Assembly (NCBI GenBank): GCA_028821145.1
Contig: JAPPHC010000023.1
Coordinates: 5,305-69,304, forward strand
From: Gammaproteobacteria bacterium
GTDB taxonomy: Bacteria > Pseudomonadota > Gammaproteobacteria > Steroidobacterales > Foliamicaceae
Direction of reading: 5' to 3'
Length of the DNA: 64,000 nucleotides
In this document: one piece after another, positions 10,816 through 38,202 of the stretch
Numbering within the stretch: position 1 is the stretch's first letter
How the letters are laid out: each line of letters opens with the position of its first letter
Position numbers and translations under genes: made by a program
Notes under the pieces: generated by a model
The model's database searches: none
Seen by the model: the letters and a program-made list of their open reading frames with translations, nothing else
Told to the model about the DNA's origin: nothing

Positions 10816-12945
10816 ATGAGAACCTTCGGCGGCAGCACGCTGCGCGGCGGGCAGACCGTGTTCCACGGCCTGCACATGTGGAGCCAGCTCCTGCGCGCGG
10901 CCTTGCTGCTCGCGGTGGTGGGGATCGTCGCCACGCCCGCCTGGCGGATCTGGGACCGTACGACCGGCTACGAGTGGTACGCGGCCATGATCGTGACCGT
11001 GGCCGAGGCCAAGCTCGGCGTCGGCTACGCGCGAACGTCCCGCCAGGAGGTGCGCCAGCCGGACGGAAGCACGGCGGTGCTCACTCTGCCGGAGATCGCG
11101 TCGTCGCCGCAGGCGCTGGCCATGCGCGAGAAGCTCAAGCGCGAGGTGTACGGGGGCGCGGCGCTTGGCGCCAAACTCTCCGCCGGGGCCATTGCCGGGC
11201 TGCTCGCGCTGTTTTGGGTCCGCGGAAACCGGCTCGGACGCAACCGCCACATTCGCGGCGCCGAACTCGCTACCGTGGGCCAACTGCGGCGGCGCGTACG
11301 GCCGCTCCCGCGCCGGGCCGCGGACCGGCTGTCGGGCCGGCGCCCGCCCTACCGCATCGCGGGGATGCCGTATCCGCGGCGCGCCGAGACGCAGCACACC
11401 ATCGTTTCCGGCACCACCGGGTCCGGAAAAACCGTACTGATCTCCGATCTGGTGGCGCAGATCCGCGAACGCGGCGAGCGCTGCGTCGTCTACGACAAGA
11501 TGGGCAGCTACACGCGCGCGTTCTACGACCCGGACAGAGACACGCTGCTCAACCCGCTCGACGCCCGCAGCCCGCGCTGGTCGCCGTTCCTCGAGGCGAG
11601 GAGCCCGAGAGACTTCGACACGATGGCCGCGGCGCTGATTCCGCAGCAGAAGGACACCGTCGATCCGTTCTGGGTTACGGCCGCCCGGCAACTGTTCGCC
11701 AACGGCGCGGGCGTGCTCCGCGAGCGCGGCGTCACCGAAAACCGGGAGCTCGTCGAGCACCTCCTCAAGACCGACCTGACGAAGCTCGCCGAGGCCATGG
11801 AGGGTACCGTCGCGCAGTCCATCGTCGATCCCGACAACCCCAAGACCGCGCTGAGCGTCCGCGCCATGCTCACCGCCAACATCGGCGCGCTGGAATACCT
11901 CCCCGACACAGGCGAGTCGTTCTCGATCCGCGAGTGGATCTCGAACGATGGCGCCTGCGGCGGGCAGGCCCGGGACGGCCGAGCGCGGGAGGCCCCGGCA
12001 GGGGGCGCGCCCGCCCGCCAGGGCGGCGGGTTCCTGTTCCTGACCTCCCGGGGCGACCAGCACGCCTCGTTGCGCGGGCTGATCTCGACCTGGCTGGAGA
12101 TCGCGGTCAACGCCATGCTCTCTCTGGAGCAGGACGACGAGCGCCGCATCTGGGTGGTGCTCGACGAGCTGCCGACGCTGCACCAGGTGCCGAGCCTGCA
12201 ACCGGGCCTGGCGGAGTCGCGCCAGTTCGGCGGCTGCTTCGTGCTCGGCATCCAGGTGATCTCGGCGCTGCGCGACCTGTACGGGCGCAACGGCGCGGAG
12301 ACCAAATCGGGGCTGTGCGGCACGCGCGTCGTGTTGGCCGCGCCGGATCGCGACACCGCGCAGTGGTCGGCCGAGAGCCTGGGGCGCGCCGAGGTCGAAG
12401 AGGTGACCGAGGGGTTCAGCTACGGCGCCAACACCATCCGCGACGGCGTCTCGCTGATGCCGAAGCGCGAGCTGCGACCGCTGGCGCTGGCCTCGGAGAT
12501 CATGCAGCTCGAAAGCCTCCACGGCTGGTTGCGGTTCCCCGGCCCGCTCCCGGTCGCCCGGATCAGGCTCAACTACGTCGCACGGCCGAAGGCTGCGGAG
12601 CGGTTCGTGCCGAGGCCGCATGGCGCCCCGGAGCAAGCGAATGCGCGGGAGGGATCGGCAATTGGAACCGCGACAGCGAAAAGGATGGAAGAGCCGAAAT
12701 CGCCGGCTCGGTCTATGCGATCCGCGGGCGCGGAGGATGAAGCGCCGGTTCCCCGTAGCGAATTGCTGCTGCTTCCGCCGATGGAGCCGGATCGTGGATC
12801 GAAGCCACCGCGCAAGGTACGAAAAAACGCAGTTCGCAAGGTGAGCAAATCTGGACCGGGCGGCGACGGCTCGAACCGGGACGCCAAATCTCGCGACGGC
12901 GACGAAGCGGGGGAAACGCCCGCCCAGGATCCGGACTGGCTGTAA
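10816..12945 (+). CDS. traD: Type IV coupling protein TraD
   Basis: Two N-terminal TM helices, Walker A GTTGSGKT, Walker B VVLDELPTL. Acidic-aromatic C-terminus QDPDWL whose stop overlaps the next ATG (TAATG). Confidence 0.9.
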   Translation: MRTFGGSTLRGGQTVFHGLHMWSQLLRAALLLAVVGIVATPAWRIWDRTTGYEWYAAMIVTVAEAKLGVGYARTSRQEVRQPDGSTAVLTLPEIASSPQALAMREKLKREVYGGAALGAKLSAGAIAGLLALFWVRGNRLGRNRHIRGAELATVGQLRRRVRPLPRRAADRLSGRRPPYRIAGMPYPRRAETQHTIVSGTTGSGKTVLISDLVAQIRERGERCVVYDKMGSYTRAFYDPDRDTLLNPLDARSPRWSPFLEARSPRDFDTMAAALIPQQKDTVDPFWVTAARQLFANGAGVLRERGVTENRELVEHLLKTDLTKLAEAMEGTVAQSIVDPDNPKTALSVRAMLTANIGALEYLPDTGESFSIREWISNDGACGGQARDGRAREAPAGGAPARQGGGFLFLTSRGDQHASLRGLISTWLEIAVNAMLSLEQDDERRIWVVLDELPTLHQVPSLQPGLAESRQFGGCFVLGIQVISALRDLYGRNGAETKSGLCGTRVVLAAPDRDTAQWSAESLGRAEVEEVTEGFSYGANTIRDGVSLMPKRELRPLALASEIMQLESLHGWLRFPGPLPVARIRLNYVARPKAAERFVPRPHGAPEQANAREGSAIGTATAKRMEEPKSPARSMRSAGAEDEAPVPRSELLLLPPMEPDRGSKPPRKVRKNAVRKVSKSGPGGDGSNRDAKSRDGDEAGETPAQDPDWL

Positions 12946-13316
12946 TGGTCGTTTCCATCACCGCTGTCGCGTCGCAGTCCCAGGGCGTCTTCTACTACGA
13001 GCGCGACGGCTACTGCGCGGAAGACGATGCCGAACACTTGAACGCGAGCGCCTGGACGGACATGAACGAGGTTCGCATCCACGATCTTCGAAACAGCTTC
13101 GCTTCGCGGGCGCTGGCGCCCGAAGAATCCCTGCCGATGATCGGCAAGTTGCTCGGCCACAGGCGCGCGCAGACCACGGCGCGCTATGCGCATCTGGCAC
13201 GGGAATCAGTCAAGGAGGCAGCGGCTCGGATCGCCGCCAGCATCGGTGAGGACACTCTTTGTCGCGTCGCTGCGCTTTATGGTGGGGCGATGAATTTGCC
13301 TGACGCAGGCAACTAA
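12945..13316 (+). pseudogene. Chimeric remnant: relaxase 5' fragment fused to tyrosine-integrase 3' fragment
   Basis: aa 1-37 (MVVSITAVASQSQGVFYYERDGYCAEDDAEHLNASAW) match the start of the full relaxase at 15669 (26 of 37 identical by hand). From VRIHDLRNSFASRAL...LGHRRAQTTARYAHLARESV it matches the C-terminal catalytic region of the integrases at 50050 and 51260. Confidence 0.75.
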
Positions 13317-13317
13317 A

Positions 13318-13800
13318 CTAAAGATCGTGGAACCCGGTGTAGGGCATGTCGACATAGATGCCGTCGCCATGCGTACGCGTGTACATTCCATTCTGGTTGA
13401 GAAGCCGTTCCAAGACTTCGATCAACGGATCATAGATTTCCTGACCGGTCCATTCCTCAAGATCGAAGAAAGGCTGGACAGCGTCTCGACAAGCGCCAAG
13501 CATCCATCCCAAGGGGTGGCCAGCGAGGTTCTCGAGCTTGGCGCGGTAGCGAGCCGCCAGTCCGGGATGGTCTTCTGCCTTCGCCTCAATCCAGTCGGCG
13601 TGGCCTATGCCATATCCGATCGCTTGGAATAGGAACGTCAGCCGCTCGACCACCAAGGACCAGTACCTATCCAGGTCCCCGTGCAAGCGATAGCTCAGGC
13701 GTGCCGACCGGATCTGGTCATTCACGTCTTTCATCGCCTCACTCAGCATATCGAGGAGATCAAGCCCGTGTTCGGGCGGTCGCCCATGGGTTGACAACAT
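13318..13800 (-). CDS. Hypothetical protein downstream of vapC (start uncertain: 13800 or 13749)
   Basis: Visibly lower G+C than the flanks. Non-repetitive, balanced composition (DRYWSLVVERLTFLFQAIGYGIGHADWIEAKAEDHPGLAARYRAKLENL). AAGGA about 11 nt upstream of ATG 13800. No family recognised. Confidence 0.45.
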   Translation of the reverse strand: MLSTHGRPPEHGLDLLDMLSEAMKDVNDQIRSARLSYRLHGDLDRYWSLVVERLTFLFQAIGYGIGHADWIEAKAEDHPGLAARYRAKLENLAGHPLGWMLGACRDAVQPFFDLEEWTGQEIYDPLIEVLERLLNQNGMYTRTHGDGIYVDMPYTGFHDL

Positions 13801-14194
13801 CAACGCCCGTGTCCTTGAAATCCCGCACGTTGCGGGTGACCAGGACGGCGCCTCGAGACCGGCATATGGCGGCAATCTGGCAGTCGGCCTCGCCGATCGG
13901 TCGGCCCGCGTCGCGGCGGTCGGCCGCGATCTCCGCGTAGGCTCGGGCCGCGGCACTGTCGAACGGCAGAACCCGCTCCCTGAAGCCCAGGTCGAGCCAG
14001 CGGGTCATGGCGGCTTCCAGGGCGTTTCGCCGTTTGCCGACTGGCATGATCGCGACGCCGTAGCGCAACTCCGCTTCGCTCACCGCCGTCAGGTACATCT
14101 CCTGCGCGTCGCGTTCGGCGATCCAGGCCGCGACGGCGGGCGTCGGCTCCGGGCGCATGAGTTCGGAGGCGACATTCGTGTCTATGGCAAACAC
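13760..14194 (-). CDS. vapC: PIN-domain toxin VapC (FitB-like)
   Basis: MFAIDTNVASEL... (first acidic PIN residue), SEAELRYG, and C-terminal LVTRNVRDFKDTGVDVVNPW typical of VapC/FitB. Confidence 0.9.
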   Translation of the reverse strand: MFAIDTNVASELMRPEPTPAVAAWIAERDAQEMYLTAVSEAELRYGVAIMPVGKRRNALEAAMTRWLDLGFRERVLPFDSAAARAYAEIAADRRDAGRPIGEADCQIAAICRSRGAVLVTRNVRDFKDTGVDVVNPWATARTRA

Positions 14195-14203
14195 GCGAGC
14201 TGC

Positions 14204-14449
14204 TCAGGAAAAGTCCGGAGGCTCGCGCATCGGGCCGCGCGGGGGAAGTTCGAGTTCCACGCCGCCCAGGGGCGCAAAGCACTCGCGCGTGAACTTCGCC
14301 AGATCCCGGGGACCGGTTCGCCCGCCGTTCACGGCGTCGCGCAGGATGATGCGGACCTCCTCCTCCATCGAACGGTGATGTTCGGCGGCCCGCACGCGAA
14401 GGCGCGTCTTCACGTCGTCGTCGAGATTGCGGATCGTGATGTTGGCCAT
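14204..14449 (-). CDS. vapB: RHH antitoxin VapB (FitA/Arc-like)
   Basis: MANITIRNLDDDVKTRLRVRAAEHHRSMEEEVRIILRDAV is the classical ribbon-helix-helix antitoxin N-terminus. RBS GAGGAGG. Lies 9 nt upstream of vapC. Confidence 0.85.
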   Translation of the reverse strand: MANITIRNLDDDVKTRLRVRAAEHHRSMEEEVRIILRDAVNGGRTGPRDLAKFTRECFAPLGGVELELPPRGPMREPPDFS

Positions 14450-14492
14450 CCGTCATACCTCCTCATGGTGCGGGACGCACACAAACTATTGG

Positions 14493-14511
14493 TTGCTTGC
14501 AATGCAAGCAA
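14493..14511. promoter_or_regulatory. Perfect 9-1-9 palindrome, probable vapBC operator overlapping a promoter
   Basis: TTGCTTGCA-A-TGCAAGCAA lies 44 nt upstream of the vapB ATG. Read on the minus strand it contains TTGCTT, a 17-nt spacer, then TAGTTT (-35/-10-like). Confidence 0.45.
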
Positions 14512-14645
14512 GTATATGTGATCCGAGCGCGTGCTGCGCGGCTGGGGAGGTTGAGGTGGTGGGCGCTTTGTCCCGAACTTGCGCGTAACTCGGCCAACCG
14601 GCTGCGATCGCCGACCTGCCCATCGAACCTGTCGTTCGCAAGCCA

Positions 14646-14692
14646 GCGCACCTGCGCGCAGGTTGGCGCATTACTGTCGGGGAATCATAGGC
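14646..14692 (+). promoter_or_regulatory. Candidate oriT: inverted repeat followed by a nic-like tract
   Basis: GCGC-ACCTGCG|CGCAGGT-tg-GCGC hairpin (14646-14669), followed by ATTACTGTCGGGGAATCATAGGC. Lies in the 395-bp intergenic gap upstream of traD'-traI. Resembles, from memory, the R388 arrangement GCGCACC-GAAA-GGTGCGT-ATTGTCT/ATAGC. Confidence 0.3.
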
Positions 14693-14844
14693 AATCCCAA
14701 ACTGAGACCGTTTTCGAGGCAGTGTTCCGCCCCTATCCTTGGCGGATGCGCGCCTTTCCTTCAGTTTCTGCCGGGAGTCCCGCCGTCGCATCCTTCCGCC
14801 GTGCCGTCGCCGCCTGACGCGAGCGTCCGGCACGCAGTGCGAGC

Positions 14845-15669
14845 ATGATTGCCTTTCACGGCTTGCGGCGGACGATCCTTTTTGGCGTGGCGGGCGCGGT
14901 GTCGATGGCGATCCTTCTGCCCGGCCTCGCGCTGCTGCGCGATACCACCGGGCACGACTGGTACGCGGCGGGCAAGCTCGTCGTCACCGAGGCGATGATC
15001 GCGGTCGGTTTCGACCCGTCGGAATTCACGGAATACAGATCAGCGGATGGGTCGATCCGCACGGTCACTCGATTTCGCCTCGTCCATACCGTCGAAGCGT
15101 GGATGGCCCGCAGCCGCATCCTCTCCACGATCGCGGACAACGCGCTGCTTGGCGCCGGCGCCGGGTTCGGGGGCGTCGTACTCATGGCGATCCTGTCGAG
15201 CGTGACCCGGGGTGGGCGGCATGGACGGATGTCCAGAGCGTTGGCCGAACCGATGCACCGGGAGCGCCGAGGCTCGTCGCATCGAGGTTCCGGTACCGTC
15301 GAAGTGGTACCGCATACGGAAGGCGGTACCCGAATCGCACTGCCGGTCACGCCTGCCGAGTTTGACCGTCCGTCCGGCGCTGTCGGACAAGCCGGTCGAG
15401 CCCCTCTTCTAACTGCTACGGAACCGGGCCGGAACTCGACAAAGGACACTTCGAGGCGGCGGGCACCGGATGCGACATCCGCCGATCAGCAGACCGACGC
15501 GGAATCGCCCGGGCCTGCCAGTAGTCCGACATCGAACCCCAGCGATACGCGCAAACCGCCCGAAGAGTCTGCCGAGGCGTTCGAACCTGCGAGCGGTCGC
15601 GATTGCAATGGCTTTTCCGGTAGCGACAGAAAGCGCCCCGGTCCAGACGACGATTGGGACTGGTTCTGA
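14845..15669 (+). CDS. TraD-derived protein lacking the NTPase core (possible gene remnant)
   Basis: The N-terminus aligns with TraD (FHGL, TTGHDWYAA vs TTGYEWYAA, VTEA, ADGS vs PDGS, GAGAGFGGVVLMAIL vs GAKLSAGAIAGLLAL). No Walker A or B. C-terminus DDDWDWF overlaps the relaxase ATG (TGATG), as the TraD tail does at 12945. Confidence 0.6.
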   Translation: MIAFHGLRRTILFGVAGAVSMAILLPGLALLRDTTGHDWYAAGKLVVTEAMIAVGFDPSEFTEYRSADGSIRTVTRFRLVHTVEAWMARSRILSTIADNALLGAGAGFGGVVLMAILSSVTRGGRHGRMSRALAEPMHRERRGSSHRGSGTVEVVPHTEGGTRIALPVTPAEFDRPSGAVGQAGRAPLLTATEPGRNSTKDTSRRRAPDATSADQQTDAESPGPASSPTSNPSDTRKPPEESAEAFEPASGRDCNGFSGSDRKRPGPDDDWDWF

Positions 15670-18644
15670 TGGTCGCATCGATTGGTGCGGTAGCGAGCCC
15701 GGCACAGGGCGCCAGTTACTACGAACGGGACGGCTACTACGCCAAGGACGACCCCGAGCATCGCGCCGCGAGCGCTTGGGCAGGCCGCGGCGCGGCCGAA
15801 CTCGGCCTGGAAGGTACGGTCGATCCCGAGACCTTCAAGGCGGTGCTCGAAGGCGCCGTCCCCGACGGTTCCGGACGGCGGCTCGGCAAGCGCGGCAAGG
15901 GCGGGGAGATCCACCACCGGCCCGGGCGCGATCTGACGTTCAGTGCGCCCAAATCTGTCTCGCTCGCCGCGCTGATCGGCGGCGACTCCCGCATCGTCGA
16001 CGCCCACGACCGGGCGGTGGTCCGTGCGCTTGGCTGGTTCGAGAAAAACGCCGCCGAAACCCGGATGCAGGACAAAGCCACCGGAAGGATGGTCCGCGTG
16101 CGCGGCCAGAAGGCGGTGATTTCCACCTTCCGGCACGACACGTCCAGGAATCTCGATCCGGCGCTGCACACGCACTCGGTGATCGCCAACATGCTCAAGG
16201 GCGCCGACGGCAAGTGGCGGACGATGGCCAACGAGTCGCTCTACACCTCCAAGATGCTCCTGGGCGCCCTTTACCGGAGCGAGCTCGCGGGCGAACTCAA
16301 GACGCTCGGCTACTCCATCGAGAAGACCCACGCCGATGGGCGGTTCGAGATCGCAGGCGTGCCCCGCGAGACCGTCGAGGCGTTCTCCACGCGGCGGGCC
16401 GAGATCGAGGCTGCGATGGAAACGCGTGGCCTCGGAGAAACGGCGGCCAATCCGCATCTTGCCGGGCGGGCGGCGCTGATGACGCGCGCACACAAGCGCG
16501 ATGTCGACAAGGCGGCGCTGCGAGAGACCTGGGCGAAGCAGGCCGCCGACCTCGGCTTCGACGCCAAGGCGCTCATCGCCTCGGCGGTGGAGCGCAGTCG
16601 GAACGGCGCCCAGATCGCACACAACCATGAACAACAGGCGGGCAAGGAGGGATCACTTGGCACGGCGCGTCAGGAACACCTGTTTGAGCGGGCCGCACCG
16701 GCGGAACCCGCCCGCGAGGCGGTGGGGTGGGCGCTCGCCCATCTGTCGGAACGCGATGCCGTGTTCTCGTCGAACGATCTGTTGGCCGCAGCGCTTGCGT
16801 TCAATCCTGGCGCGGCCCCCATTGGGGAGATCGAGCAGGCCGTCGCGGGCCTCAAGCGTGAGGGCCGGCTCCACGATGCGCCGGCGCTCGAAGGCGGCGG
16901 CGGACTCACCACCGACACGGCGGTCGCGCAGGAACGCGAGACGATTTCCCTCATGCGCACCGGCGCGGCCCGGGGCAAGGCGCCGATGCGCGGCTGGATG
17001 GTCGACCGGCACCTGCGCAAGGGGCCGCTCACGGCCGGACAGAAGCAGGCGGTAAAACTGATCCTCTCGGAGAAGGATCGCACCGTCGGCGTGCAGGGCT
17101 ACGCCGGGACCGGCAAGACGCGGATGCTGAATCGCGCGAGGACTCTCGCCGAAAAGAAGGGCTGGCGCATGGTGGGGCTCGCGCCGTCGGCTTCGGCGGC
17201 GCAGACGCTGGCGGCGGAATCGGGCATCGAGTCGGAAACGCTGCAACGGTTCCTCGCGAGAAACGCGGGAGTCGCCCAAGGCCGGCTCACCCGCAAGGGT
17301 GCGAGAGCGCTGCGCGCCGCATTCGCCAAGACCGTGCTGGTCGTCGACGAGGGATCGCTCGCCTCCACCGTGCAGGCCCGCGACCTGCTCCGGATCGCGA
17401 GCGAAGTCCGCATCCCGAAGGTGGTGTTGGTCGGCGATGCCAAACAACTCGATGCCGTCGATGCCGGCAAACCGTTCTCGCAGTTGCAGCAGGCGGGCAT
17501 GAAGACCGCCGTCATGGACGAAATCATGCGTCAGAGAAACGTCGACCTGAAGGCCGCGGTGATGGCGAGTCTCAAAGGCGAGATCGGCAGGGCGTTCGAG
17601 AAACTGGGCGGCAATGTTGCCGAGGTCAACCCCGACAACATCGCCGGCGCGGTGGCCGCCCGCTGGCTGAAGCTATCGGCGGAGGAGCGCGACCGTACCG
17701 GTGTCATGGCCCCGAGCCATACCTTGCGGCAGGCGGTCAATGGGCACATCCGGGATCGGCTCGTTCGAGAAGGCCGCATCGCCGGTCCCGCCATGGAGAC
17801 GGAGCGGCTCGTCTCGAAGGGCTACACCAATGCGGAAAAGGCGCTGGCGGCGAACTACGCGGCCGGCGACATGGTCGCCTTTCACCGTCCCTACAAGCGG
17901 CTCGGTGTCGAGAAAGGCGCCGAACGCCGCGTTACGGGCGTGGATCACAGGACGAGAACCGTGCAACTGGAAGGCCCGGACGGTTCGGCGGTGGGCTGGA
18001 AACCGTCGCACATCGGAGGACGCCGGGGTGGAACGGAGGTCTACCGCGCGGAAGCGCTCGAGCTTCGCGCCGGTGACCGCATCCGCTGGACCCGCAACGA
18101 TGCGGGCCTGGGGATCGTGAACAGCGGCGTCGCTGAGGTGACGGCGGTGCGCAAAGGCCGGGTGTCCTTCCGTCTTGAGGACGGGCGCAGCCTCGATCTC
18201 CGCGAAGGAGACGCGCAGCTTCGCCATCTCGACCACGCCTGGGCCTCGACGGTGCACGCGTTCCAGGGTCGCACGGTGGATAACGTGATCGCGGCGATGG
18301 AAGCGAACCATCCGCGCCTGACGACGGCCAAGTCCTTCTACGTCGAGATCAGCCGCGCCCGGGACAGGGCGGAACTGGTGACCGACGATGCGGCGGCGCT
18401 CAAGGAACGGCTCGAAGCGGTGACGGGAGAGCGCATCTCGGCCCTTGAGGGCATCGGCGAGGCCCAGCAGCCGGAGCGCGGCAAGGACTCGAAGGCGTCA
18501 CTCGACCGCGAACCGACACACCGTGAGACTGGGGCGTCGTCCTCGCCGGACAAGATCACCGAGCACGATGTCTCCACCGCCAGGCAGGCGGAACCGGAAC
18601 CACCGACCCGGGGCAAGAACCTTGACATGGAGCTGGGGCTGTAG
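15669..18644 (+). CDS. traI: MOBF (TrwC/TraI-type) relaxase-helicase
   Basis: N-terminal YYERDGYY tyrosines and histidine triad FRHDTSRNLDPALHTHSVIAN. Helicase Walker A GVQGYAGTGKT, LVVDEGSL, and C-terminal STVHAFQGRTVD. Confidence 0.9.
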   Translation: MVASIGAVASPAQGASYYERDGYYAKDDPEHRAASAWAGRGAAELGLEGTVDPETFKAVLEGAVPDGSGRRLGKRGKGGEIHHRPGRDLTFSAPKSVSLAALIGGDSRIVDAHDRAVVRALGWFEKNAAETRMQDKATGRMVRVRGQKAVISTFRHDTSRNLDPALHTHSVIANMLKGADGKWRTMANESLYTSKMLLGALYRSELAGELKTLGYSIEKTHADGRFEIAGVPRETVEAFSTRRAEIEAAMETRGLGETAANPHLAGRAALMTRAHKRDVDKAALRETWAKQAADLGFDAKALIASAVERSRNGAQIAHNHEQQAGKEGSLGTARQEHLFERAAPAEPAREAVGWALAHLSERDAVFSSNDLLAAALAFNPGAAPIGEIEQAVAGLKREGRLHDAPALEGGGGLTTDTAVAQERETISLMRTGAARGKAPMRGWMVDRHLRKGPLTAGQKQAVKLILSEKDRTVGVQGYAGTGKTRMLNRARTLAEKKGWRMVGLAPSASAAQTLAAESGIESETLQRFLARNAGVAQGRLTRKGARALRAAFAKTVLVVDEGSLASTVQARDLLRIASEVRIPKVVLVGDAKQLDAVDAGKPFSQLQQAGMKTAVMDEIMRQRNVDLKAAVMASLKGEIGRAFEKLGGNVAEVNPDNIAGAVAARWLKLSAEERDRTGVMAPSHTLRQAVNGHIRDRLVREGRIAGPAMETERLVSKGYTNAEKALAANYAAGDMVAFHRPYKRLGVEKGAERRVTGVDHRTRTVQLEGPDGSAVGWKPSHIGGRRGGTEVYRAEALELRAGDRIRWTRNDAGLGIVNSGVAEVTAVRKGRVSFRLEDGRSLDLREGDAQLRHLDHAWASTVHAFQGRTVDNVIAAMEANHPRLTTAKSFYVEISRARDRAELVTDDAAALKERLEAVTGERISALEGIGEAQQPERGKDSKASLDREPTHRETGASSSPDKITEHDVSTARQAEPEPPTRGKNLDMELGL

Positions 18645-18762: not shown

Positions 18763-19116
18763 ATGAACCGGAACCGATCCAGCAATCACCAGACGACAGA
18801 CGCGGAGGCGAAGCGGCGGCCTCACTCGATTCGGTTTCTCGACCCGGAATGGGAGCGCATCGAAGTCTTCGCCGATCAGCGCGGCCTCACCGCTCCCGAG
18901 TTCGTCCGGTTCGCTGCGCTTGTTGCGATAGAGAACGGGAGCGAACCGGTCGCCAAGCTGATCCCGCTGATCAAGAGGACGTTCCGCGGGACCCACATAT
19001 TGGCGTCGAGATTGCGCGTCGAGATGCTCGACGCGGGCGAGCAGGAAGAGCTCGATGCGATGATCGCCGCAGCCCGCGGGCTTCAGAACGAGTTGATCGG
19101 CTCCCAATCGGACTGA
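18763..19116 (+). CDS. Small relaxase-adjacent protein, possibly ribbon-helix-helix DNA-binding
   Basis: RBS GGGAGA. The segment RPHSIRFLDPEWERIEVFADQRGLTAPEFVRFAAL has a strand-helix-helix pattern like relaxosome accessory or RHH proteins. Tentative. Confidence 0.5.
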   Translation: MNRNRSSNHQTTDAEAKRRPHSIRFLDPEWERIEVFADQRGLTAPEFVRFAALVAIENGSEPVAKLIPLIKRTFRGTHILASRLRVEMLDAGEQEELDAMIAAARGLQNELIGSQSD

Positions 19117-19137
19117 GCGGCCAATTGCGCTCGCTGT

Positions 19138-19179
19138 CAAATTTGCAATTTGCTACAGTGCCGCCCGAATTTGAAATTC
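19138..19179. promoter_or_regulatory. AT-rich palindrome/repeat cluster upstream of the 19349 gene
   Basis: Contains CAAATTTG (palindrome, 19138-19145), AATTTG repeated at 19140, 19147 and 19168, and GAATTT-G-AAATTC (6-1-6 inverted repeat, 19167-19179). Confidence 0.35.
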
Positions 19180-19348
19180 ACTGGTATGGGCGTGAGCAGG
19201 TGCTGCGAACAGTTCGACTACAATAACCGTTTGGAGCCGTGTCCGCTGCGCTGCCGGAAACGGAAGTTGTAGCACCGATAGCAGTAATCACTCACTATCC
19301 GGCGCTGCTTGACCTCACACCTGAGCCCAAGCTCGAAACGATATTCAA

Positions 19349-21112
19349 ATGGCGGATAACCCGCTGACCGTACCAGCGAAGGCGGGGCGCACCATCGTCG
19401 AGTCCGGCGCGTTACTCGCTTGCCCGCTTCTCGGCACCGACCGCTTCGTGAAATTCTGTTCCGATCGCGGCCTCGACATCGACCGCGAACGCCTCATCCG
19501 ACTTGAACGTCTCGGGTTGTTTGCCCCGGTGTTCCGGGTGCGGACGCCCAAAAGCTCGACAGAACCCTTCCGTATTCCGCCGACCAAAGGAAACAACTGG
19601 TTCAGCAAGGGATGGGCTCGCGACACCACAGGCGTCCCTTCGAGACACGCGGTCCCGCCGCACAACGACCAGACTCGCGAAGGATACTACTCGATCTTCC
19701 AGATACATCAACTGGATTCCGTGCTGTCCGCGTTTACGCTTCAGCTCCGCCTGGACTCTTTTGTTGACCTCGACGGGGAAGGCCCATTCCAATGGCAGGA
19801 GGCGGGCACTCGCTGGCTGAATCACGCACGAGACCTCGCAGGCAGCCTGCGCGACCATCAGTACCGCCCAGCCGTGGCGCTATTGTGTCAGTACATCTCG
19901 AACCGCTACTACCCGCACACGCAGAGCGACATGCGAATCCAGCAAGTTCGCAAGAGCCTCTCATCCGATCAATGGATATTCGTCAACGCTCAGGATTGGG
20001 ACTGGGAGGAAGAAGCGCGGCATTGGAATCCCAGGGAGACAGAGAAGATATTCGGGCTGACGCAGGAGAACCTCGGTCGAGCCTACCGGGGCCTCTCGGT
20101 CGCCCAAGCGCATTGCGACCCGATCGAGCCTTGGTACCAACTTACCCAGTTCATTGCGATGAACGAACGTGAAAAATTGAAAGGAGCGGCGCTGCGGGCG
20201 GAAACTCTGCGCGCCGGAGCCTTCATGCTTGGGTTGCTTTACAAGGACCTTTATGGGGAAGAACTCCCTCACCCCAATGAAGTGACCCGAACGATAATCC
20301 GACACATACCGGAAACGGCGGTGCGCGATGACGTTCGTCGCCACCTTGAATTCGTTGCCAACCGTTTCCACGTCAACCCGCAACCTCGACTTTCGCTGAT
20401 CGTTGAAGGACAGACCGAGGAGATAGCCGTCACCCAGATATTCGAACGTTTCTTCGGTGCGCATCCCGGGACATTCGGCATCGAAGTCGTCGTGCTCGGC
20501 GGAGTGAATGTCGCGACCGGCGGCAAGAAGGAAGACCGCTTCCGCGCGATCATGCGCCTGATTGACTACCTGCATCACCATCAGACCTTCACGTATCTGT
20601 TGCTCGACAACGAGAACTATGCGAGCCGGCTCAAGAAAGCTGCTAAGGAAATGAAGTCGATTCACACGGATCATCGATACGTTACCCGACCCGACTACAT
20701 TCGCATCTGGAAGACCTCGTTCGAATTCGACAACTTCTCCTGTACCGAAATCGCGGCGGCTCTGGGGGAAGCGGCGGAAGATCGTGTCCAGTTCACGTCA
20801 AGACAAGTTGCGGCCGCGAAGCAAGAAAAGCACCCCGGGGCTGCGCTCGGACAACTCTTCCGGTGCAAGACTGGCCACGATCTTCCCAAGATTTCGCTGT
20901 GCGAATCTCTCGTTCGTTGCATGTTCTCTCCAACGAGCCGTCGCAAAATCGAGAATCGACCCATCGTCCGCGCCTTGAACCGGGTTGCTAGTCTCGCTGC
21001 TCGCAACCATTTGCCCGTCACCCAAGGGACAAAAGATGCGAATCAGGAGTCAACATTCCTGGGTCTGAAACGCACGCCACCTGCGAGGACAGGACGAAAG
21101 CCAACGTCATGA
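19349..21112 (+). CDS. 587-aa hypothetical protein with Toprim-like C-terminal module (candidate nuclease/defence gene)
   Basis: Long ORF with balanced composition in a visibly lower-G+C segment. aa 346-470 read RLSLIVEGQTEEIAV...IEVVVLGGVNV...TYLLLDNENY...WKTSFEFDNF, i.e. strand-EGxxE then hydrophobic strand-DxE, as in Toprim/OLD/DUF4435/DUF4276-type domains. No P-loop seen. Confidence 0.7.
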   Translation: MADNPLTVPAKAGRTIVESGALLACPLLGTDRFVKFCSDRGLDIDRERLIRLERLGLFAPVFRVRTPKSSTEPFRIPPTKGNNWFSKGWARDTTGVPSRHAVPPHNDQTREGYYSIFQIHQLDSVLSAFTLQLRLDSFVDLDGEGPFQWQEAGTRWLNHARDLAGSLRDHQYRPAVALLCQYISNRYYPHTQSDMRIQQVRKSLSSDQWIFVNAQDWDWEEEARHWNPRETEKIFGLTQENLGRAYRGLSVAQAHCDPIEPWYQLTQFIAMNEREKLKGAALRAETLRAGAFMLGLLYKDLYGEELPHPNEVTRTIIRHIPETAVRDDVRRHLEFVANRFHVNPQPRLSLIVEGQTEEIAVTQIFERFFGAHPGTFGIEVVVLGGVNVATGGKKEDRFRAIMRLIDYLHHHQTFTYLLLDNENYASRLKKAAKEMKSIHTDHRYVTRPDYIRIWKTSFEFDNFSCTEIAAALGEAAEDRVQFTSRQVAAAKQEKHPGAALGQLFRCKTGHDLPKISLCESLVRCMFSPTSRRKIENRPIVRALNRVASLAARNHLPVTQGTKDANQESTFLGLKRTPPARTGRKPTS

Positions 21113-21234
21113 GCCAAGCCCATGCCTACCTGTACGATGTCTAAGTCGTTCACCAGCAGCTCCACGATTCTAGCCGTCGCCACCATGACGGAGGCCATGA
21201 GCAGTCCGCGAATTCGAGGCGACGAATAGGACTG

Positions 21235-21497
21235 CTATCTCCAGAGCGTTGGTCGGAGCGTGAGAGTCCGACCTGTAACGAGCGCGAACAGCAGGAAGAT
21301 CGTCTTCGTACTGTGGCTTTCGTTCGCGGTGCTGGAGGGCCACTGACGCGACAAATCTGGGTTCGGATTCCCGATGCTCCAGAGCATCGCGAGCAGTCGA
21401 ATTGACTGCTCGTAGGAAGGCTCCTGATTCCCCAGAGAACCGAAGCCCAAGAAACGTTTGCCATTTCAACACGATACTCGCGGTTCTCCAGAGAACC
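21235..21497. repeat. Array of related 16-bp palindromic sites sharing a CYCCAGAG core, interleaved with hairpins
   Basis: Palindromic sites: GATGCT-CCAG-AGCATC (21373-21388), GATTCC-CCAG-AGAACC (21426-21441), GGTTCT-CCAG-AGAACC (21482-21497) and a degenerate copy at 21235-21250. Hairpins: GGTCGGA-N9-TCCGACC (21251-21273) and CGAGCAGTC-GAATT-GACTGCTCG (21390-21412). Confidence 0.6.
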
Positions 21498-21885
21498 AAC
21501 TCGATCCGGCAAGTGCGAGGCGCTCCATGTCGCCGAAAACGCATGGGAATGCAGGACAGGCGCGCGCCTGGCACACCCCGCAGAGGAACTGCGCTCAGGT
21601 GTGAAAACCGAGCCGCCTCCGGCGTCGAGGAGAGCACCGGGAGGCGGCATTCAGTAAGGGAAGAACGGCGCCGGCGAACGCGGCGGGCGTGAGCCGCCGC
21701 GGCGCGTGAGCGGACGGCGGTGCGGACGGAGCTGCGGGCAGGCGTGCGCAGCACGCTGCCGGACGCGGCGGCGGAATCGGCTGCACGCGGGCGGACATCG
21801 GTTGCAGCAGCGATGCGGACGGACGTGCGGATGCCGATGCGCAGCGAAGCCGCCGTCGGCGACGCGCGGAGCGCGGACAGCGCCG

Positions 21886-21931
21886 ACCAAAAAAGAAGCG
21901 GGCCGCGCCGCCGGAGAGCGACGCGACCCGC
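21886..21931 (-). terminator. Rho-independent terminator ending the minus-strand gene block
   Basis: On the minus strand GCGGGUCGCG-N14-CGCGGCCCGC (10 bp, one G-U) is followed by UUCUUUUUU. It starts 14 nt after the stop at 21946. Confidence 0.6.
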
Positions 21932-21945
21932 GGGGCCGGTGCGGG

Positions 21946-22875
21946 CTACGCCGCGCGGCAGCGCTGCACCGGGATGCCGAGCTTGACGGCCTTGTCGACG
22001 AGGTTGTCGGTGATGCCTGAGCCGGGGAAGGCGATGACGCCCTTGGGCAGCAGGTTGAGCAGGTCGTCGTTGCGCCGGAACGGTGCGGCCCGTCCGTGGC
22101 GGTCCCAGTCGGGCTTGCACACCACCTGGTGCACGCCGTGGCGTTCGGCCCACTGTGCGGCGAAGCGTTCCACGCCGGGGCCGCCGCCGTGCACGAGCAC
22201 CATGTCGCTGTACTTCGCGCGGGCGGTGTCGAGGCGCCGGAAGATGGCGTCCACGTCCGTGACGTTCTTGCCGCCGGCCACCGCGATCAGGGTGCCGTCG
22301 GGCAGGTGCGCCTGGGTCTCGCGATCCTTGCGGGCGCGCAGGAAGTCGCGGGCGTCGATGGCCGCGGAGGTGAGTTTCCGCGTCTGGCTCGTGTGGCTGC
22401 CGTAGCGCGGGCGCCAAGTGTCGCCGGTGGCTTCGCGGTAGGCGTCGGCGGCGGTGTCGCGCATCTTCTCGAACGCGTCGCGCCGCTTGCCGAGGTTCTG
22501 CGCCCGGTCGGTCGTGAGTTCGAGTTCGCGGGCGTTGATCTCGGTGCCGTCCTGGGCGCGTTGCAGGTCGCGGAGCTTCGGGGCCAGCCGGTCGACGCCG
22601 CGGTCGAGCCTGCGGACCTGGGCGTCGAGCATGTTGACGAAGCCCCAGAGCATGGACTCGCGCTCGTCGGCGAGTTGGGTGCCGTCGGGCGCCACGTTGC
22701 CAGCGAGGATGCTGAACGCTTCGCTGACCGCGGCGAGCGCGTCGTCCCGGTCCCAGACGTCCCTGGGGTCGAACTCGTCGCGCCCGGGCGTTGCGCCGTA
22801 GAGTGCCGCGTTCTCGCAGATGACTGCCGTGGGCGATTGCGCCTGTTGGGCTTGCAGTGTGTCGTAATCGAACAT
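21946..22875 (-). CDS. DUF2493-like (SLOG-type) protein with coiled-coil N-terminal half
   Basis: RBS AGGAGA upstream of ATG 22875 (MFDYDTLQ). The C-terminus VLVHGGGPGVERFAAQWAERHGVHQVVCKPDWDRHGRAAPFRRNDDLL...GVIAFPGSGITDNL is the pattern I recall for DUF2493. Confidence 0.75.
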   Translation of the reverse strand: MFDYDTLQAQQAQSPTAVICENAALYGATPGRDEFDPRDVWDRDDALAAVSEAFSILAGNVAPDGTQLADERESMLWGFVNMLDAQVRRLDRGVDRLAPKLRDLQRAQDGTEINARELELTTDRAQNLGKRRDAFEKMRDTAADAYREATGDTWRPRYGSHTSQTRKLTSAAIDARDFLRARKDRETQAHLPDGTLIAVAGGKNVTDVDAIFRRLDTARAKYSDMVLVHGGGPGVERFAAQWAERHGVHQVVCKPDWDRHGRAAPFRRNDDLLNLLPKGVIAFPGSGITDNLVDKAVKLGIPVQRCRAA

Positions 22876-23274
22876 GAGAGTGTCTCCTGTAACAAGATGA
22901 GAGATGAGCCAGATGGCCCGGAGCATCGGAAGAGCGTCTCCCGACGTAGGTTTATTGGTTCACGCGCGCGCAGTGCCGTCACCGCCTTGGCGGCCGCAGC
23001 GAAGCGTAGGACCCGCGCTTGCGCGGGTTGACGGTGCGAGCACGTGTGAAACAATGGGCCTTCGTCGGGAGGAGCTTTTGTTTCCATGACCGCCGTGTTC
23101 CCTGGCAAGCGGAGTGCGCAGCGAGCCTGCGAGCGGAGGCGCGAGGGATTGCAGCGGAAATCGGAGCTTGCGGAGATTGGAGCGTAAAGCCCGGTCGCGA
23201 AGCGACGCGCACAAAGTTCTGTCCTGCATCCGCGCCGCTGCCGATCCGAACCGCAATCCCGTAGTCCACGCCGC

Positions 23275-35682: not shown

Positions 35683-38019
35683 CTACTGTGTCGCCTGGCG
35701 CAGGAACCCGGGCACGTCCGCGGCCTCGCCAGCGGTCTCGCCGTTGGCGTCGGTTACTCCGGCGTCTGCGGCTGAGTGCCCGGCATCGCCGGCGCCGTTG
35801 CCGCTCGCCGGAACGTCGTTCCGCTCGCGAGCCGAGGCGTCGTGGCCGTTGCCTCGATCCGTTTGCACCGTCGCGTCGTCCTGGTCGCCGGGCGGAACGG
35901 GCGCCGTTTCGGCGCCGTTCGAGGACGCGACGTCGGCCGAATCGGCGGCGGATGCCAGTTCGGTGTCGTCGGCTTGGCCCCCCGCGTCGAACGCCGCGAA
36001 CCCCGGCGGGGTCCAGGCGAGCGCGGCGGCGTGTTCGTCGGCCCCGATGCCCACCGGCGGCTTGCCGGCGGCGAACGCCTCTTCCATGGCCTTGGCGAGA
36101 TCCGCCTTCCGGTACTTCGAGCGCGCCGACGCCCAGGCCGGCCCCAGCGTGTCGCGGGCGATGGCCAGGATGCGGTCCTTGCGCAGCCGCGACCACACCA
36201 GATCCGAGGTCGGGCGCACGTGCTTCGCGAACTCGATCCCGAGCCGCGCGACGGTGGCCTCCAGTTCCGGCCGGGCCTCGTGCTCAAACGCAAGCTGCCC
36301 CCGGATCGTGCGCGCCACGGCGGCGGCGAACAGCTTCTCCTTGTCCGCCCGCGGCAGGTTGCGCAGCGCCTCGAAGCAGGTCGCGTCGCCATCCTGCTCC
36401 ATCCAGTCGAACGGCAGGTCCGACCAGTCCGCGAGCATCGCCTCGCCGGGGCTTGCGGCGGCGAAGCCGTCGTCGTTCATGCGCATCGACGGGCGGTCGG
36501 CGGTTTCGTTGAACGCGATGTCGAGCGCGTGATACGCGGTCGTGTAGCCGTTCGCGAAGACGGCGCGCGCCATCTGGAATACGGTCAGGTCGAACGCGGC
36601 CTCGAAGTCGGTCGCCAGGTGCGCCTTCACCAGCGCCGTGCGAATGGCGCGCAGGTCGTCGGCCAGCCCGATGCCCACGCCCGCCTCCTGCCGGGCCGTG
36701 GCGCGCGGATCGGGCGGCGGCGCCAGCGGCGCGGAGACCGCGGGGCCTTCGACGCCCGTGGATTCCGCCGCACCGTTGCCGGCCGCCGTCCCGGCGGCGT
36801 GCCCGTTCGCGCCGGCGTCGTCGGAGTCGGTCTTCGGCATGTCCTCGGGCTTCACCAACCCCTGGATGACCTGCAACGTCCCGTCGCGCCCGACCGTGGC
36901 GATGGCCCCGGCGATGGCGAAGTCCTCGCGGCGGAACCGCGCGCGGGCCTCCACGGTCTGCTCGATCGTGTCGAGCCGCTCGTCGATGGACTCCGCTTCG
37001 GCTTCGAGCTCCTCGGTCCAGTCCCCGTCGTCGAGGTTGGCCAGTTCGTCGTGGCGCGTGCGCAGCCGCTCGGTCTCGGCGGTTTCCTCGTCCGTGGGCT
37101 CGCCCGGTTGGGGATGGACGCGGCCGTAGCGCGCGGCGGCGCTCCAGTCGACCTCAAGCCTCGCCTCGGACCACTTCCAGCGGGTGGACAGCTCGTCGGC
37201 GACGACTTCGAGCTTCTTCATGGCCAGGTCGTTCAGGAGCGCCGGATCCTCGAACCACAACCCGTTCTCGTGATCGTCGGCGAACAGATCCCGCATCACC
37301 GGGCCGCCGGCGGCCTCGTAGGCTTCCACGCCCACGAACCGGGCCAGCGCCGAGGAACCCGGCACCCGCTCCTCGGTCAGCAGGCGCTTGACCTGCCAGG
37401 CAGTGGGCCGGTAATCCTGCGCGGAAACCTGTTCCCACACGGCAAGCTGGCGCCCGGTGTCGGGGGTGACGGCGAACGCTTTGAGCGTCTCCAGGTCGAT
37501 GGCCTCCTCCCGGTAGGCATCGAGGAGTTCCGGGGCGGCGTTGCCGAGGCGCAGGCGCTGCTCGACGATGCGTTCGGAGACGCCGAAGCGGTTCGCGATG
37601 GCCGCGACGGACAGTCCGTCGCCCGCAAGGGCGGAGAACGCCGCCACCTGGTCGGCGGGGTGCATGGCGATGCGCACGACGTTCTCGGCGAGCGACAGTT
37701 CGCCGCCGTTGGCGTCGGGCGCGATCCGGCAGGGCACAGGCAGTTCGGGGTCCAGCGCGCCGTCTCCGGCGAGCGACTGCAGCGCCGCCAGGCGCCGGCC
37801 GCCGGCGAGGACGGCGAAGCGTTCGTTCCCGTCGTCGTCGGTGCCGTCGGCGCGCGCGACGAGGTTCTCCAGCAGGCCGTGGGCCTCGATCGAGGCCTTG
37901 AGCTCGGCCAGGGCGTTACCGTGGGTGGGGGTCTTTCTGACGTTCTCGGGCGCCAGGAAAAGACGCGACAGCGGGATCTCCCGGATGACGGCGTCGGGCG
38001 GGGGAGCGGTTGGGTTCAT
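35683..38019 (-). CDS. Large ParB/Srx-fold protein (ParB-like nuclease/partition family, 778 aa)
   Basis: RBS GGAGA upstream of ATG 38019. IPLSRLFLAPENVRK and FAVLAGGRRLAAL (the GxxR box of the ParB N-terminal domain), followed by HTH-like LSVAAIANRFGVSERIVEQRLRL. Confidence 0.85.
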   Translation of the reverse strand: MNPTAPPPDAVIREIPLSRLFLAPENVRKTPTHGNALAELKASIEAHGLLENLVARADGTDDDGNERFAVLAGGRRLAALQSLAGDGALDPELPVPCRIAPDANGGELSLAENVVRIAMHPADQVAAFSALAGDGLSVAAIANRFGVSERIVEQRLRLGNAAPELLDAYREEAIDLETLKAFAVTPDTGRQLAVWEQVSAQDYRPTAWQVKRLLTEERVPGSSALARFVGVEAYEAAGGPVMRDLFADDHENGLWFEDPALLNDLAMKKLEVVADELSTRWKWSEARLEVDWSAAARYGRVHPQPGEPTDEETAETERLRTRHDELANLDDGDWTEELEAEAESIDERLDTIEQTVEARARFRREDFAIAGAIATVGRDGTLQVIQGLVKPEDMPKTDSDDAGANGHAAGTAAGNGAAESTGVEGPAVSAPLAPPPDPRATARQEAGVGIGLADDLRAIRTALVKAHLATDFEAAFDLTVFQMARAVFANGYTTAYHALDIAFNETADRPSMRMNDDGFAAASPGEAMLADWSDLPFDWMEQDGDATCFEALRNLPRADKEKLFAAAVARTIRGQLAFEHEARPELEATVARLGIEFAKHVRPTSDLVWSRLRKDRILAIARDTLGPAWASARSKYRKADLAKAMEEAFAAGKPPVGIGADEHAAALAWTPPGFAAFDAGGQADDTELASAADSADVASSNGAETAPVPPGDQDDATVQTDRGNGHDASARERNDVPASGNGAGDAGHSAADAGVTDANGETAGEAADVPGFLRQATQ

Positions 38020-38202
38020 GTGGTTCTCCGTGGGTGGGAAGACAGGGGCGAGGCCTGGCTCTCTCCAGCCGGCCCGCGCCCAACCGGCCCTCAACCGGCT
38101 CGGCCTCCTCGCGGAGCCGGGGCAAGGCCTGGCGGAACGGATCGGAAGGTGACGCCCGGGCCGGCGGGACCGTGGCGTTGCGGCCAAAGCGGGAAACGGC
38201 GG

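Follow-up and report, generated by a model that had tools for sequence, protein, structure and literature searches.

What is the role of a stretch of some 770 bp, rich in palindromes and hairpins, that lies between a cargo gene and the end of a long block of minus-strand genes? The stretch occupies positions 21113–21885 of a 64-kb piece of a gammaproteobacterial genome (contig JAPPHC010000023.1, 5,305 to 69,304), here called the window, in which all coordinates are given. An initial annotation, made from the sequence alone, read it as a phased protein-binding array, for which centromere-like sites, an operator set, and accessory sites of an origin of transfer (oriT) were considered, with a structured RNA as an alternative to such an array. 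Comparison with related loci favors the oriT accessory sites: the gap is probably the oriT of an integrated conjugative element (ICE), with a MOBF relaxase and accessory sites for a ribbon-helix-helix (RHH) protein. This reading draws on sequence anatomy, conservation, covariation, gene content, and gene orientation, all observed directly; the binding partner, the exact nick position, and the function in transfer are inferred from them. The feature is familiar in kind, if not yet described for this element family. The window carries a conjugative element, since a TrwC-type relaxase, a small NikA-like protein, a long minus-strand block with SSB and HigB/HigA, and, upstream, an F-type TraG_N protein are all encoded there. 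Regions of this type are generally intergenic, locally AT-richer, and dense in inverted repeats (PMC4853378). The gap shares these traits, being intergenic and dense in inverted repeats, with 55–59% GC in a dip that extends from ~19100 to 21520, compared to ~70% window-wide.

The locus is identified by a nick site and by the leading-region logic to its right, both of which were missed when it was viewed as an array beside a cargo gene and a terminator. An inverted repeat and an adjoining core form a nick-site motif at 21579–21603 on the + strand, inside the gap and ~110 bp to the right of the palindromes. Beyond the hairpin, the + strand motif reads in full CCGCAGAGGAACTGCGCTCAGGTGTGAAAAC; the sequence spanning the predicted nick is CCGCAGAGGAACTGCGCTCAGGTGTGAAAACCG, with the cut predicted after GGTGT, and the sequence around the predicted relaxase cleavage point is CCGCAGAGGAACTGCGCTCAGGTGTGAAAACCGAG. 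The nick pattern has only two matches in the window. The mapped nick of the F plasmid is TTTGCGTGGGGTGT/GGTGCTTT, where the slash marks the cut (PMC2504302), and the nick region of plasmid R388, GCGCACCGAAAGGTGCGTATTGTCT/ATAG, consists of a 5-bp inverted repeat with a 4-nt loop, 9 single-stranded nt, and the nick (PMC4814116, PMC4176350), with a purine required at +1 (PMC4176350).

Related loci, referred to by L numbers, came from a pattern scan of metagenome contigs for two such palindromes 25–55 bp apart, which returned 49 loci (most of them unrelated), and from close homologs (77–91% identity) of the DUF2493 protein encoded to the right of the gap, which yielded L071–L084. Past the DUF2493 terminator, the non-coding DNA of the latter can be aligned to the window up to the hairpin at 21612–21648, and the nick-site motif follows ~10 nt later. 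The inverted repeat and core were tabulated in ten relatives by a position-restricted script; a MAFFT alignment of the loop-stripped nick sites shifted the window by one base, and pair counts were taken from the script table. A perfect 5-bp inverted repeat occurs at the same place in all ten, with loops of 2–5 nt and five different arm pairs (CGCAG/CTGCG, GCATC/GATGC, GCACC/GGTGC, GCAGC/GCTGC, and TCGCC/GGCGA). The proximal arm is followed, again in 10 of 10, by 9 nt (10 in L079) ending in GGTGT and then by G at +1. The core of seven relatives is GCGTGGGGTGT/G (motif GCGTGGGGTGTG), which is identical to the mapped F nick over 11 nt plus the +1 G. By a rough estimate, chance would put a perfect 5-bp repeat at one fixed place in far fewer than 1% of sequences, and the arms also covary. 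Because the arms covary at a fixed place and the relaxase domain matches TrwC and TraI, the predicted nick is placed at 21602/21603 on the + strand. The interval is very likely an oriT with its nick at or very near 21602.

The palindromes lie 5′ of this predicted nick. On re-reading 20700–22300, all of the palindromes and hairpins described at first, and the degenerate copy, were found at their coordinates, and a repeat search returned the three related palindromes as one family with the same spacings of 53 and 56 bp. The same search recovered the proposed pairing of the arms at 21434 and 21480 as the pair 21425–42/21481–98. The positions of the palindromes hold, but not the 6-4-6 form originally given to all three, as those at 21373–21388 and 21482–21497 are each perfect 7-2-7 palindromes. 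The degenerate 14-mer YTCYCCAGAGMAYC, allowing at most one mismatch, has three matches in the 64-kb window, all of them in the array, against 0.26 expected, and none of 100 shuffles reached three matches. The palindromes are real, non-random, and unique to one spot in the window.

L071, L078, and L080 keep sites at closely similar distances from the nick (Table 1). In alignment A4, the −113 site (A1) has the −111 site of L071, L078, and L080 as its ortholog, with conserved flanks and the center CCAGAG retained; the arms are GTTCTC/GAGAAC in L066 as in the window, and ATGCTC/GAGCAT in L071 and L078. Three types of palindrome, A, B, and C, accompany three types of RHH protein. The β-strand PHSIRFLD occurs with GGTTCTC-CA-GAGAACC in the window and L066, PRSIRFS(N/D) with GTATGC-N5-6-GCATAC in L071, L078, and L080, and KTVRVTED with TTCAGTCAA-N-TTGACTGAA in L081–L084. 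The A1 palindrome is present five times in L066, in which the RHH protein has the same β-strand as that of the window. In the studied loci, no palindrome of type A or B lies outside the 450 bp on the 5′ side of the nick; the looser C pattern (5-nt arms) has scattered matches elsewhere too. Because copies with the same arms within an element change as a set between elements, the palindromes point to one sequence-specific binder rather than to independent hairpins. The RHH protein at 18763–19116, already suggested as a binder to test, is the best candidate, as the arm type tracks its β-strand, and it appears reasonably likely that the palindromes are its sites.

The conserved GC palindrome CAGGCGCGCGCCTG is found at −37 to −39 in the window, L066, L071, L078, and L080. 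The 14-nt core ATGCTCCAGAGCAT of the 21373–21388 palindrome is identical to the −111 site of L071, and the core CAGTC-N-GACTG of the palindrome at 21391–21413 resembles the type C palindrome of L081–L084, a likeness less pronounced than those of types A and B. Positional conservation of the sites begins at 21373 and continues rightward, even among elements that blastn can no longer align in the surrounding DNA.

The conservation extends to gene order. L066, which was retrieved by the palindrome pattern alone, is collinear with the window, and both share the order upstream gene, TrwC relaxase gene, RHH gene, a differing cargo gene, array, ~380–400 bp, terminator, and DUF2493 gene. Identity to the window is 82% for the upstream gene, 74% for TrwC, 73% for the RHH gene, and 83% for the terminator plus the end of the DUF2493 gene. 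The five GGTTCTCCAGAGAACC-like copies in L066 lie ~380 bp from the terminator, compared to ~400 bp in the window. The array therefore belongs to the element backbone and not to the cargo, because the cargo gene differs between L066 and the window while the array stays.

A MOBF relaxase and a candidate RHH accessory protein are encoded 5′ of the predicted oriT. The relaxase domain matches that of R388 TrwC (1omh) with an E-value of 1.8e-61 and that of F TraI with an E-value of ~1e-51, with the YY and HxH motifs aligned. For the RHH protein, all six family members match the Pfam NikA-like family (best E-value 3e-6), and the best PDB match of the family profile is NikA (2ba3), at a marginal E-value of 0.008. 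The RHH gene of L071, L078, L080, and L081 is directly beside the array, at a distance from the nick to its start that ranges from ~320 bp in L071 to 475 bp in L081. A tblastn search of the plasmid collection with the RHH protein returned no match.

Table 1. Features of the candidate oriT and its surroundings in window coordinates, and distances of palindrome centers from the predicted nick in the window and related loci (a slash marks the predicted cut).
Feature	Position	Strand	Remarks
TrwC-type (MOBF) relaxase-helicase	15654–18644	+	Pfam TrwC (E 1.5e-84) plus AAA_30; 3 kb 5′ of predicted nick
NikA/TrwA-like RHH protein, 117 aa	18763–19116	+	Predicted binder of the palindromes
OLD-like Toprim cargo gene, 587 aa	19349–21112	+	Between RHH gene and array; not part of the oriT machinery
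Degenerate copy CTATCTCCAGAGCGTT	21235–21250		
Hairpin GGTCGGA-N9-TCCGACC	21250–21272		
Palindrome GATGCTCCAGAGCATC (GATGCTC-CA-GAGCATC)	21373–21388		Perfect 7-2-7; center 222 bp 5′ of nick; class B type
9-bp-stem palindrome CGAGCAGTC-GAATT-GACTGCTCG	21391–21413		Center 202 bp 5′ of nick
Palindrome A2 GATTCCCCAGAGAACC (GATTCCC-CA-GAGAACC)	21427–21442		Imperfect, 5 of 7 arm positions pair; center 168 bp 5′ of nick
Palindrome A1 GGTTCTCCAGAGAACC (GGTTCTC-CA-GAGAACC)	21482–21497		Perfect 7-2-7; center 113 bp 5′ of nick; predicted RHH accessory-protein site
GC palindrome CAGGCGCGCGCCTG	21557–21570		~38 bp 5′ of nick
IR2-like inverted repeat CGCAG-AGGAA-CTGCG	21579–21593	+	Predicted relaxase recognition hairpin; proximal arm 21589–21593
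Predicted nick core CTCAGGTGT/G	21594–21603	+	Cut predicted between T21602 and G21603; + is the predicted transferred strand
Conserved hairpin GCCGCCTCC-N19-GGAGGCGGC	21612–21648		10 nt 3′ of predicted nick
Conserved non-coding leading edge	21649–21897 (~250 bp)	+	Between nick hairpin and DUF2493 terminator
Intrinsic terminator of DUF2493 gene	21898–21931	−	15-pair stem, then TTCTTTTTT; kept in relatives; end of minus-strand block
DUF2493 gene	21946–22926	−	Right of the gap; ends the long minus-strand block
Palindrome centers, window	113, 168, 222 bp 5′ of nick		9-bp-stem palindrome at 202 bp
Palindrome centers, L071, L078, L080	111, 167/168, 210/211 bp 5′ of nick		
Palindrome centers, L066	120, 141, 196, 228, 260 bp 5′ of nick		
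Palindrome centers, L081–L084	135, 157 bp 5′ of nick		

Several observations weigh against an oriT with RHH accessory sites. The 9-mer of the window, CTCAGGTGT, matches that of F, GTGGGGTGT, at 6 of 9 positions and differs at 3, and the variant is shared by L079 only. L072–L077 keep the nick motif and lack the array, which is perhaps dispensable, unless those copies are defective. The link between protein and site involves only three classes representing three lineages, and the correlation could partly reflect shared descent. Moreover, only two palindromes of the window match its own RHH type, leaving the B-like and C-like copies unexplained. The window RHH protein itself scores 17.5 bits against Pfam NikA-like, below the cut-off of 27, and its single-sequence AlphaFold model is poor (pLDDT 48), so that the fold rests on family-level sequence. 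Its gene is 2.3 kb away from the array and points toward it, unlike the arrangement in R388. Finally, none of the 82 other loci has a counterpart of 21113–21372, the part that holds the degenerate fourth copy. The degenerate copy and the GGTCGGA hairpin (21235–21272) are of uncertain status and may be relics.

Some of these irregularities can be approached through recombination at the nick. TrwC is known to catalyze strand exchange at nick sites (PMC4176350), and the nick of this family looks like a recombination breakpoint, with the proximal arm as the precise point at which relatives diverge. The DUF2493 proteins of L072 and L073 are identical, yet the two loci already differ in this arm (GGTGC vs. 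GATGC), and the DNA on its 5′ side is unrelated. In L072–L077, everything on the 5′ side of the nick hairpin is replaced by two tandem tyrosine recombinase genes, which begin right there, at ~490 bp from the DUF2493 gene. In addition, a second nick core is present in inverted orientation at 19315–19329 (minus strand), where TCACACCTGAGCCCA matches the reverse complement of 21590–21604 at 14 of 15 positions; it is located just upstream of the Toprim gene, lacks an adjoining inverted repeat, and was found in neither L066 nor the other relatives. The mixed site classes, the unmatched left part, the layout of L072–L077, and the inverted core together suggest recombination at or beside the nick. 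A wider proposal is that the oriT is a modular junction at which relaxase-catalyzed exchange would shuffle accessory-site modules and capture cargo, and not only an origin of transfer. It takes up the divergence at the arm, the differing cargo genes in the same slot, the mixed palindromes of three RHH classes, and the inverted core; as judged from these sequence patterns, we regard it as unlikely. If true, a modular junction oriT could be usable by several related relaxosomes.

A second alternative is that the palindromes are transcriptional operators only, through which the RHH protein or another repressor would control a promoter, their proximity to the nick being incidental and the copies in the window a stranded relic. 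The array is indeed directly upstream of the RHH gene in L071, L078, L080, and L081, a layout typical of autoregulation, and the B-like and C-like copies of the window look like leftovers. However, the window and L066 keep two to five good copies, even though neither the RHH gene nor any other called gene starts beside the array of the window, and the spacing from the nick varies by no more than 2 bp across classes, which a promoter alone would not require. An exclusively regulatory role is therefore quite improbable, but regulation is plausible as a second role, since the two are not exclusive and TrwA has both.

The palindromes could also be functionless DNA left over from a previous host or an old rearrangement. 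This would agree with 21113–21372, which lacks a counterpart and shows a weak coding-like periodicity on the minus strand, but it applies to that part at most, as the sites are positionally conserved from 21373 rightward, and it is very unlikely as an account of the array. The weak periodicity comes from two minus-strand open reading frames (ORFs), 21235–21450 and 21043–21198, which are in the same frame with one TAG codon between them and have a coding-like GC bias by codon position (GC3-like periodicity); the latter overlaps the 3′ end of the Toprim gene. The pair may be a decayed gene or chance. The earlier view that the gap holds no convincing ORF agrees with the searches made here, in which its ORFs had no Pfam, PADLOC, or database homolog, including no homolog among 5.8 billion proteins. 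No match in the gap was obtained by tblastn with the gene downstream in L004 or with the RHH proteins of relatives. A decayed gene was accordingly rejected as a reading of the gap on the lack of Pfam, PADLOC, protein-homolog, and tblastn matches, and applies at most to 21113–21372.

A structured RNA was also among the first suggestions. It could be a non-coding RNA or an extended, folded 3′ untranslated region, transcribed from the minus strand or from the + strand as the tail of the Toprim mRNA. The minus strand of 21113–21660 folds at z = −4.6, compared to −1.8 for the + strand, and the arm changes among relatives are compensatory. However, the palindromes alone explain the low folding energy, and arms that are the same within an element switch as a set, a sharing that a hairpin does not need. 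Scans of the gap found no tRNA and no Rfam family at gathering score, only noise at E-values up to 10, and no sigma-70-like promoter or terminator was found bracketing the array region. Furthermore, this DNA does not accompany homologs of the Toprim gene. The chance that the array is an RNA is slim. The minus-strand terminator proposed at first was itself verified, at the position given in Table 1.

It is scarcely credible that the palindromes form a parS array, as once suggested from several phased 16-bp palindromes and a large ParB-like gene annotated at 35683–38019, because the motif is absent elsewhere in the 64-kb window, the ORF at 35683–38187 has no Pfam match at 1e-5, to ParB domains or otherwise, the arms follow the RHH β-strand and nothing else compared here, and the sites are phased to the nick. 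Replication-origin iterons are just as remote a prospect: the identical 16-mer does build an iteron-like cluster of four copies within the HTH_36 gene of a phage contig (L019/L067) and occurs in 22-bp tandem arrays in L036 and L048, but the window has no HTH_36 homolog by tblastn and no initiator beside the array, its spacing is 53–56 bp against ~21–22 bp, and the other loci share nothing else with it. In L019 (= L067), GGTTCTCCAGAGAACC is present in three perfect copies and a fourth, near-identical one, spaced at 21–27 bp (739–823) within the gene of the 406-aa HTH_36 protein, an arrangement resembling that of lambda O, with the origin inside the initiator gene; the HTH_36 protein is unrelated to the window proteins. 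With the same palindrome, an unrelated protein, and no homolog in the window, this phage lead was rejected and treated as convergence. The arrays at L036 5340–5560 and L048 150–340 consist of ~ten tandem 22-bp units (AGGTTCTCTGGAGAACCCTCCA and variants) in low-GC chromosomal intergenic DNA and border a methyltransferase-like gene in L036 and a histidine-kinase-like gene in L048.

If the gap is an oriT with RHH accessory sites, as we favor, transfer might proceed as follows. The relaxase (15654–18644) would recognize the CGCAG/CTGCG repeat (21579–21593) and the next 9 nt, cut the + strand between T21602 and G21603, and pilot the strand into the recipient 5′ end first. The conserved hairpin at 21612–21648 would enter first, followed by the non-coding stretch and then the minus-strand block, with the relaxase and RHH genes last. 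In R388, the trw genes enter the recipient last. On the side of the nick that holds the inverted repeat, the RHH protein would bind the palindromes at 21373–21497 as an oligomer, with about five helical turns between sites, and may bend or organize the DNA such that the TrwC-type relaxase could engage the proximal arm and, with the 9-nt segment extruded, make the cut. In relatives where the RHH gene abuts the array, the same binding may repress the RHH gene. TrwA reportedly, according to Moncalian et al. in 1997, acts at the R388 oriT and represses its own gene.

Known systems resemble the predicted oriT in part. R388 (TrwC/TrwA) shares a homologous relaxase domain and the sequence of 5-bp repeat, short loop, 9 nt, nick, and +1 purine (PMC4814116, PMC4176350). 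L072 has the same arms as R388 (GCACC/GGTGC), a small RHH protein has sites on the inverted-repeat side in R388 and is predicted to have them here, and in class B and C relatives the RHH gene adjoins the oriT and points away from it, like trwA. On the other hand, the core in this family is F-like (GTGGGGTGT) or CTCAGGTGT, whereas R388 has GTATTGTCT; the RHH protein has no detectable similarity to TrwA and is closest to NikA; and in the window the relaxase gene comes before the RHH gene, both toward the oriT, with a cargo gene before the array. R388 is also a plasmid, while the element of the window is chromosomal (an ICE). The F oriT (TraI) is similar in its nick core, which recurs as GCGTGGGGTGT/G in seven relatives (PMC2504302), in its relaxase domain, and in the TraG_N protein of the window. 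Unlike in F, the core of the window is CTCAGGTGT, the tight 5-bp repeat abuts the core as in R388, and TraY, TraM, and the sites sbyA and sbmA-C are not recognizable here.

The accessory protein has its closest counterpart in NikA of R64 (PDB 2ba3), which is the best profile match; its β-strand RTLRFS resembles RSIRFS, and both proteins are small, with repeats near the nick. The R64 relaxase NikB, however, is a MOBP enzyme, and the proteins of this family add a C-terminal helical half of ~60 aa. The Ptw plasmid of Burkholderia cenocepacia (PtwA/PtwC) offers another parallel, with an oriT first inferred, as here, from a long, inverted-repeat-rich, AT-richer intergenic region beside a TrwC homolog and a small RHH gene without sequence identity to TrwA (PMC4853378), although mobilization was demonstrated experimentally there and the oriT here is predicted from sequence.

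The orientation of the genes to the right of 21603 is consistent with the predicted direction of transfer. The relaxase remains on the 5′ end made at the nick, such that the recipient is first given the DNA on the 3′ side (PMC4176350), and for leading-region SSB, toxin-antitoxin, and anti-defense genes, the transferred strand is the template (PMC11541004). The block to the right of 21603 encodes the DUF2493 protein, a primase-like DUF7146/Toprim_3 protein, SSB, HigB/HigA, a strawberry-notch helicase, a DUF2201 protein, and RadC, all on the minus strand, for which the transferred + strand would be the template, matching the reported orientation (PMC11541004). Next to the predicted nick, the hairpin at 21612–21648 is nearly identical in the window, L071, L072, L073, L075, L078, and L079. 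At the equivalent place, another hairpin is present in L081 and, less surely, as judged by eye only, in L080. This hairpin was considered as a minus-strand terminator, which it probably is not, as a U-run is present only in the window and L071/L078, whereas the relatives read GGGTCTC. Alignments of the leading edge show the blocks GCCGGCGAAC.CGGCGG and GAGCCGC.GCGGCGC.TGAGCGG in common among the window, L066, L071, L072, and L075.

The family is absent from the plasmid collection searched, which contained no match to the array region or the nick region and only relatives at ~46% identity to the DUF2493 protein. Scans of viral contigs for the nick core and DUF2493 returned nothing useful. In environmental metagenomes the family is abundant, with 2,449 DUF2493 homologs at E ≤ 1e-40. 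L002 and L003 are near-identical copies of the element and too close to be informative, with one SNP (single-nucleotide polymorphism) between 21050 and 21713. From 21714 to 23100, which includes the DUF2493 gene, the terminator, and leading non-coding DNA, the window is ~10% diverged from L002, with flanks >99.9% identical; this segment is a recent recombination tract starting ~110 bp 3′ of the nick. The window (12612–15705) also has ~2.5 kb of extra DNA relative to L066 (756–1327) between the conserved upstream gene and the relaxase gene, and this window-specific DNA holds ORFs at 13318–13956 (−) and 14845–15669 (+) without a clear family.

The cargo gene preceding the array has a separate distribution. 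Hundreds of homologs of the Toprim protein at 57–71% identity are found in very different bacteria, all of them unannotated, and the family is spread over Alpha- and Gammaproteobacteria, Cyanobacteria, and Bdellovibrionales; its match to OLD-like Toprim proteins is marginal. The gene is solitary beside integrases or transfer genes, and the 587-aa protein may be a single-gene defense or addiction module. A companion RNA or site of this gene was considered for the gap and rejected, as six loci with homologs (52–71% identity) have neither similar DNA nor CCAGAG-type palindromes downstream; these loci are located beside integrases, other transfer genes, or housekeeping genes. Upstream of the gene, 19109–19221 is ~70% similar to DNA upstream of the homolog in L009. 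Immediately past the RHH gene, before the Toprim gene begins, are the AT-rich palindromes TGTCAAATTTGCAATTTGCTACA and GAATTTGAAATTC (19120–19190), which may serve the cargo module as a terminator or as a promoter-operator.

The findings leave the current understanding of conjugation unchanged. The F-type nick core of the family is combined with an R388-type hairpin, which is useful for oriT prediction tools, and the family's three pairs of RHH β-strand and palindrome amount to a small natural experiment in the divergence of relaxosome specificity at one orthologous site. The predicted location of the oriT and its nick would also give the direction of transfer and hence mark the minus-strand block as the leading region, an assignment that would provide a role for many uncharacterized genes in a family of chromosomal conjugative elements.

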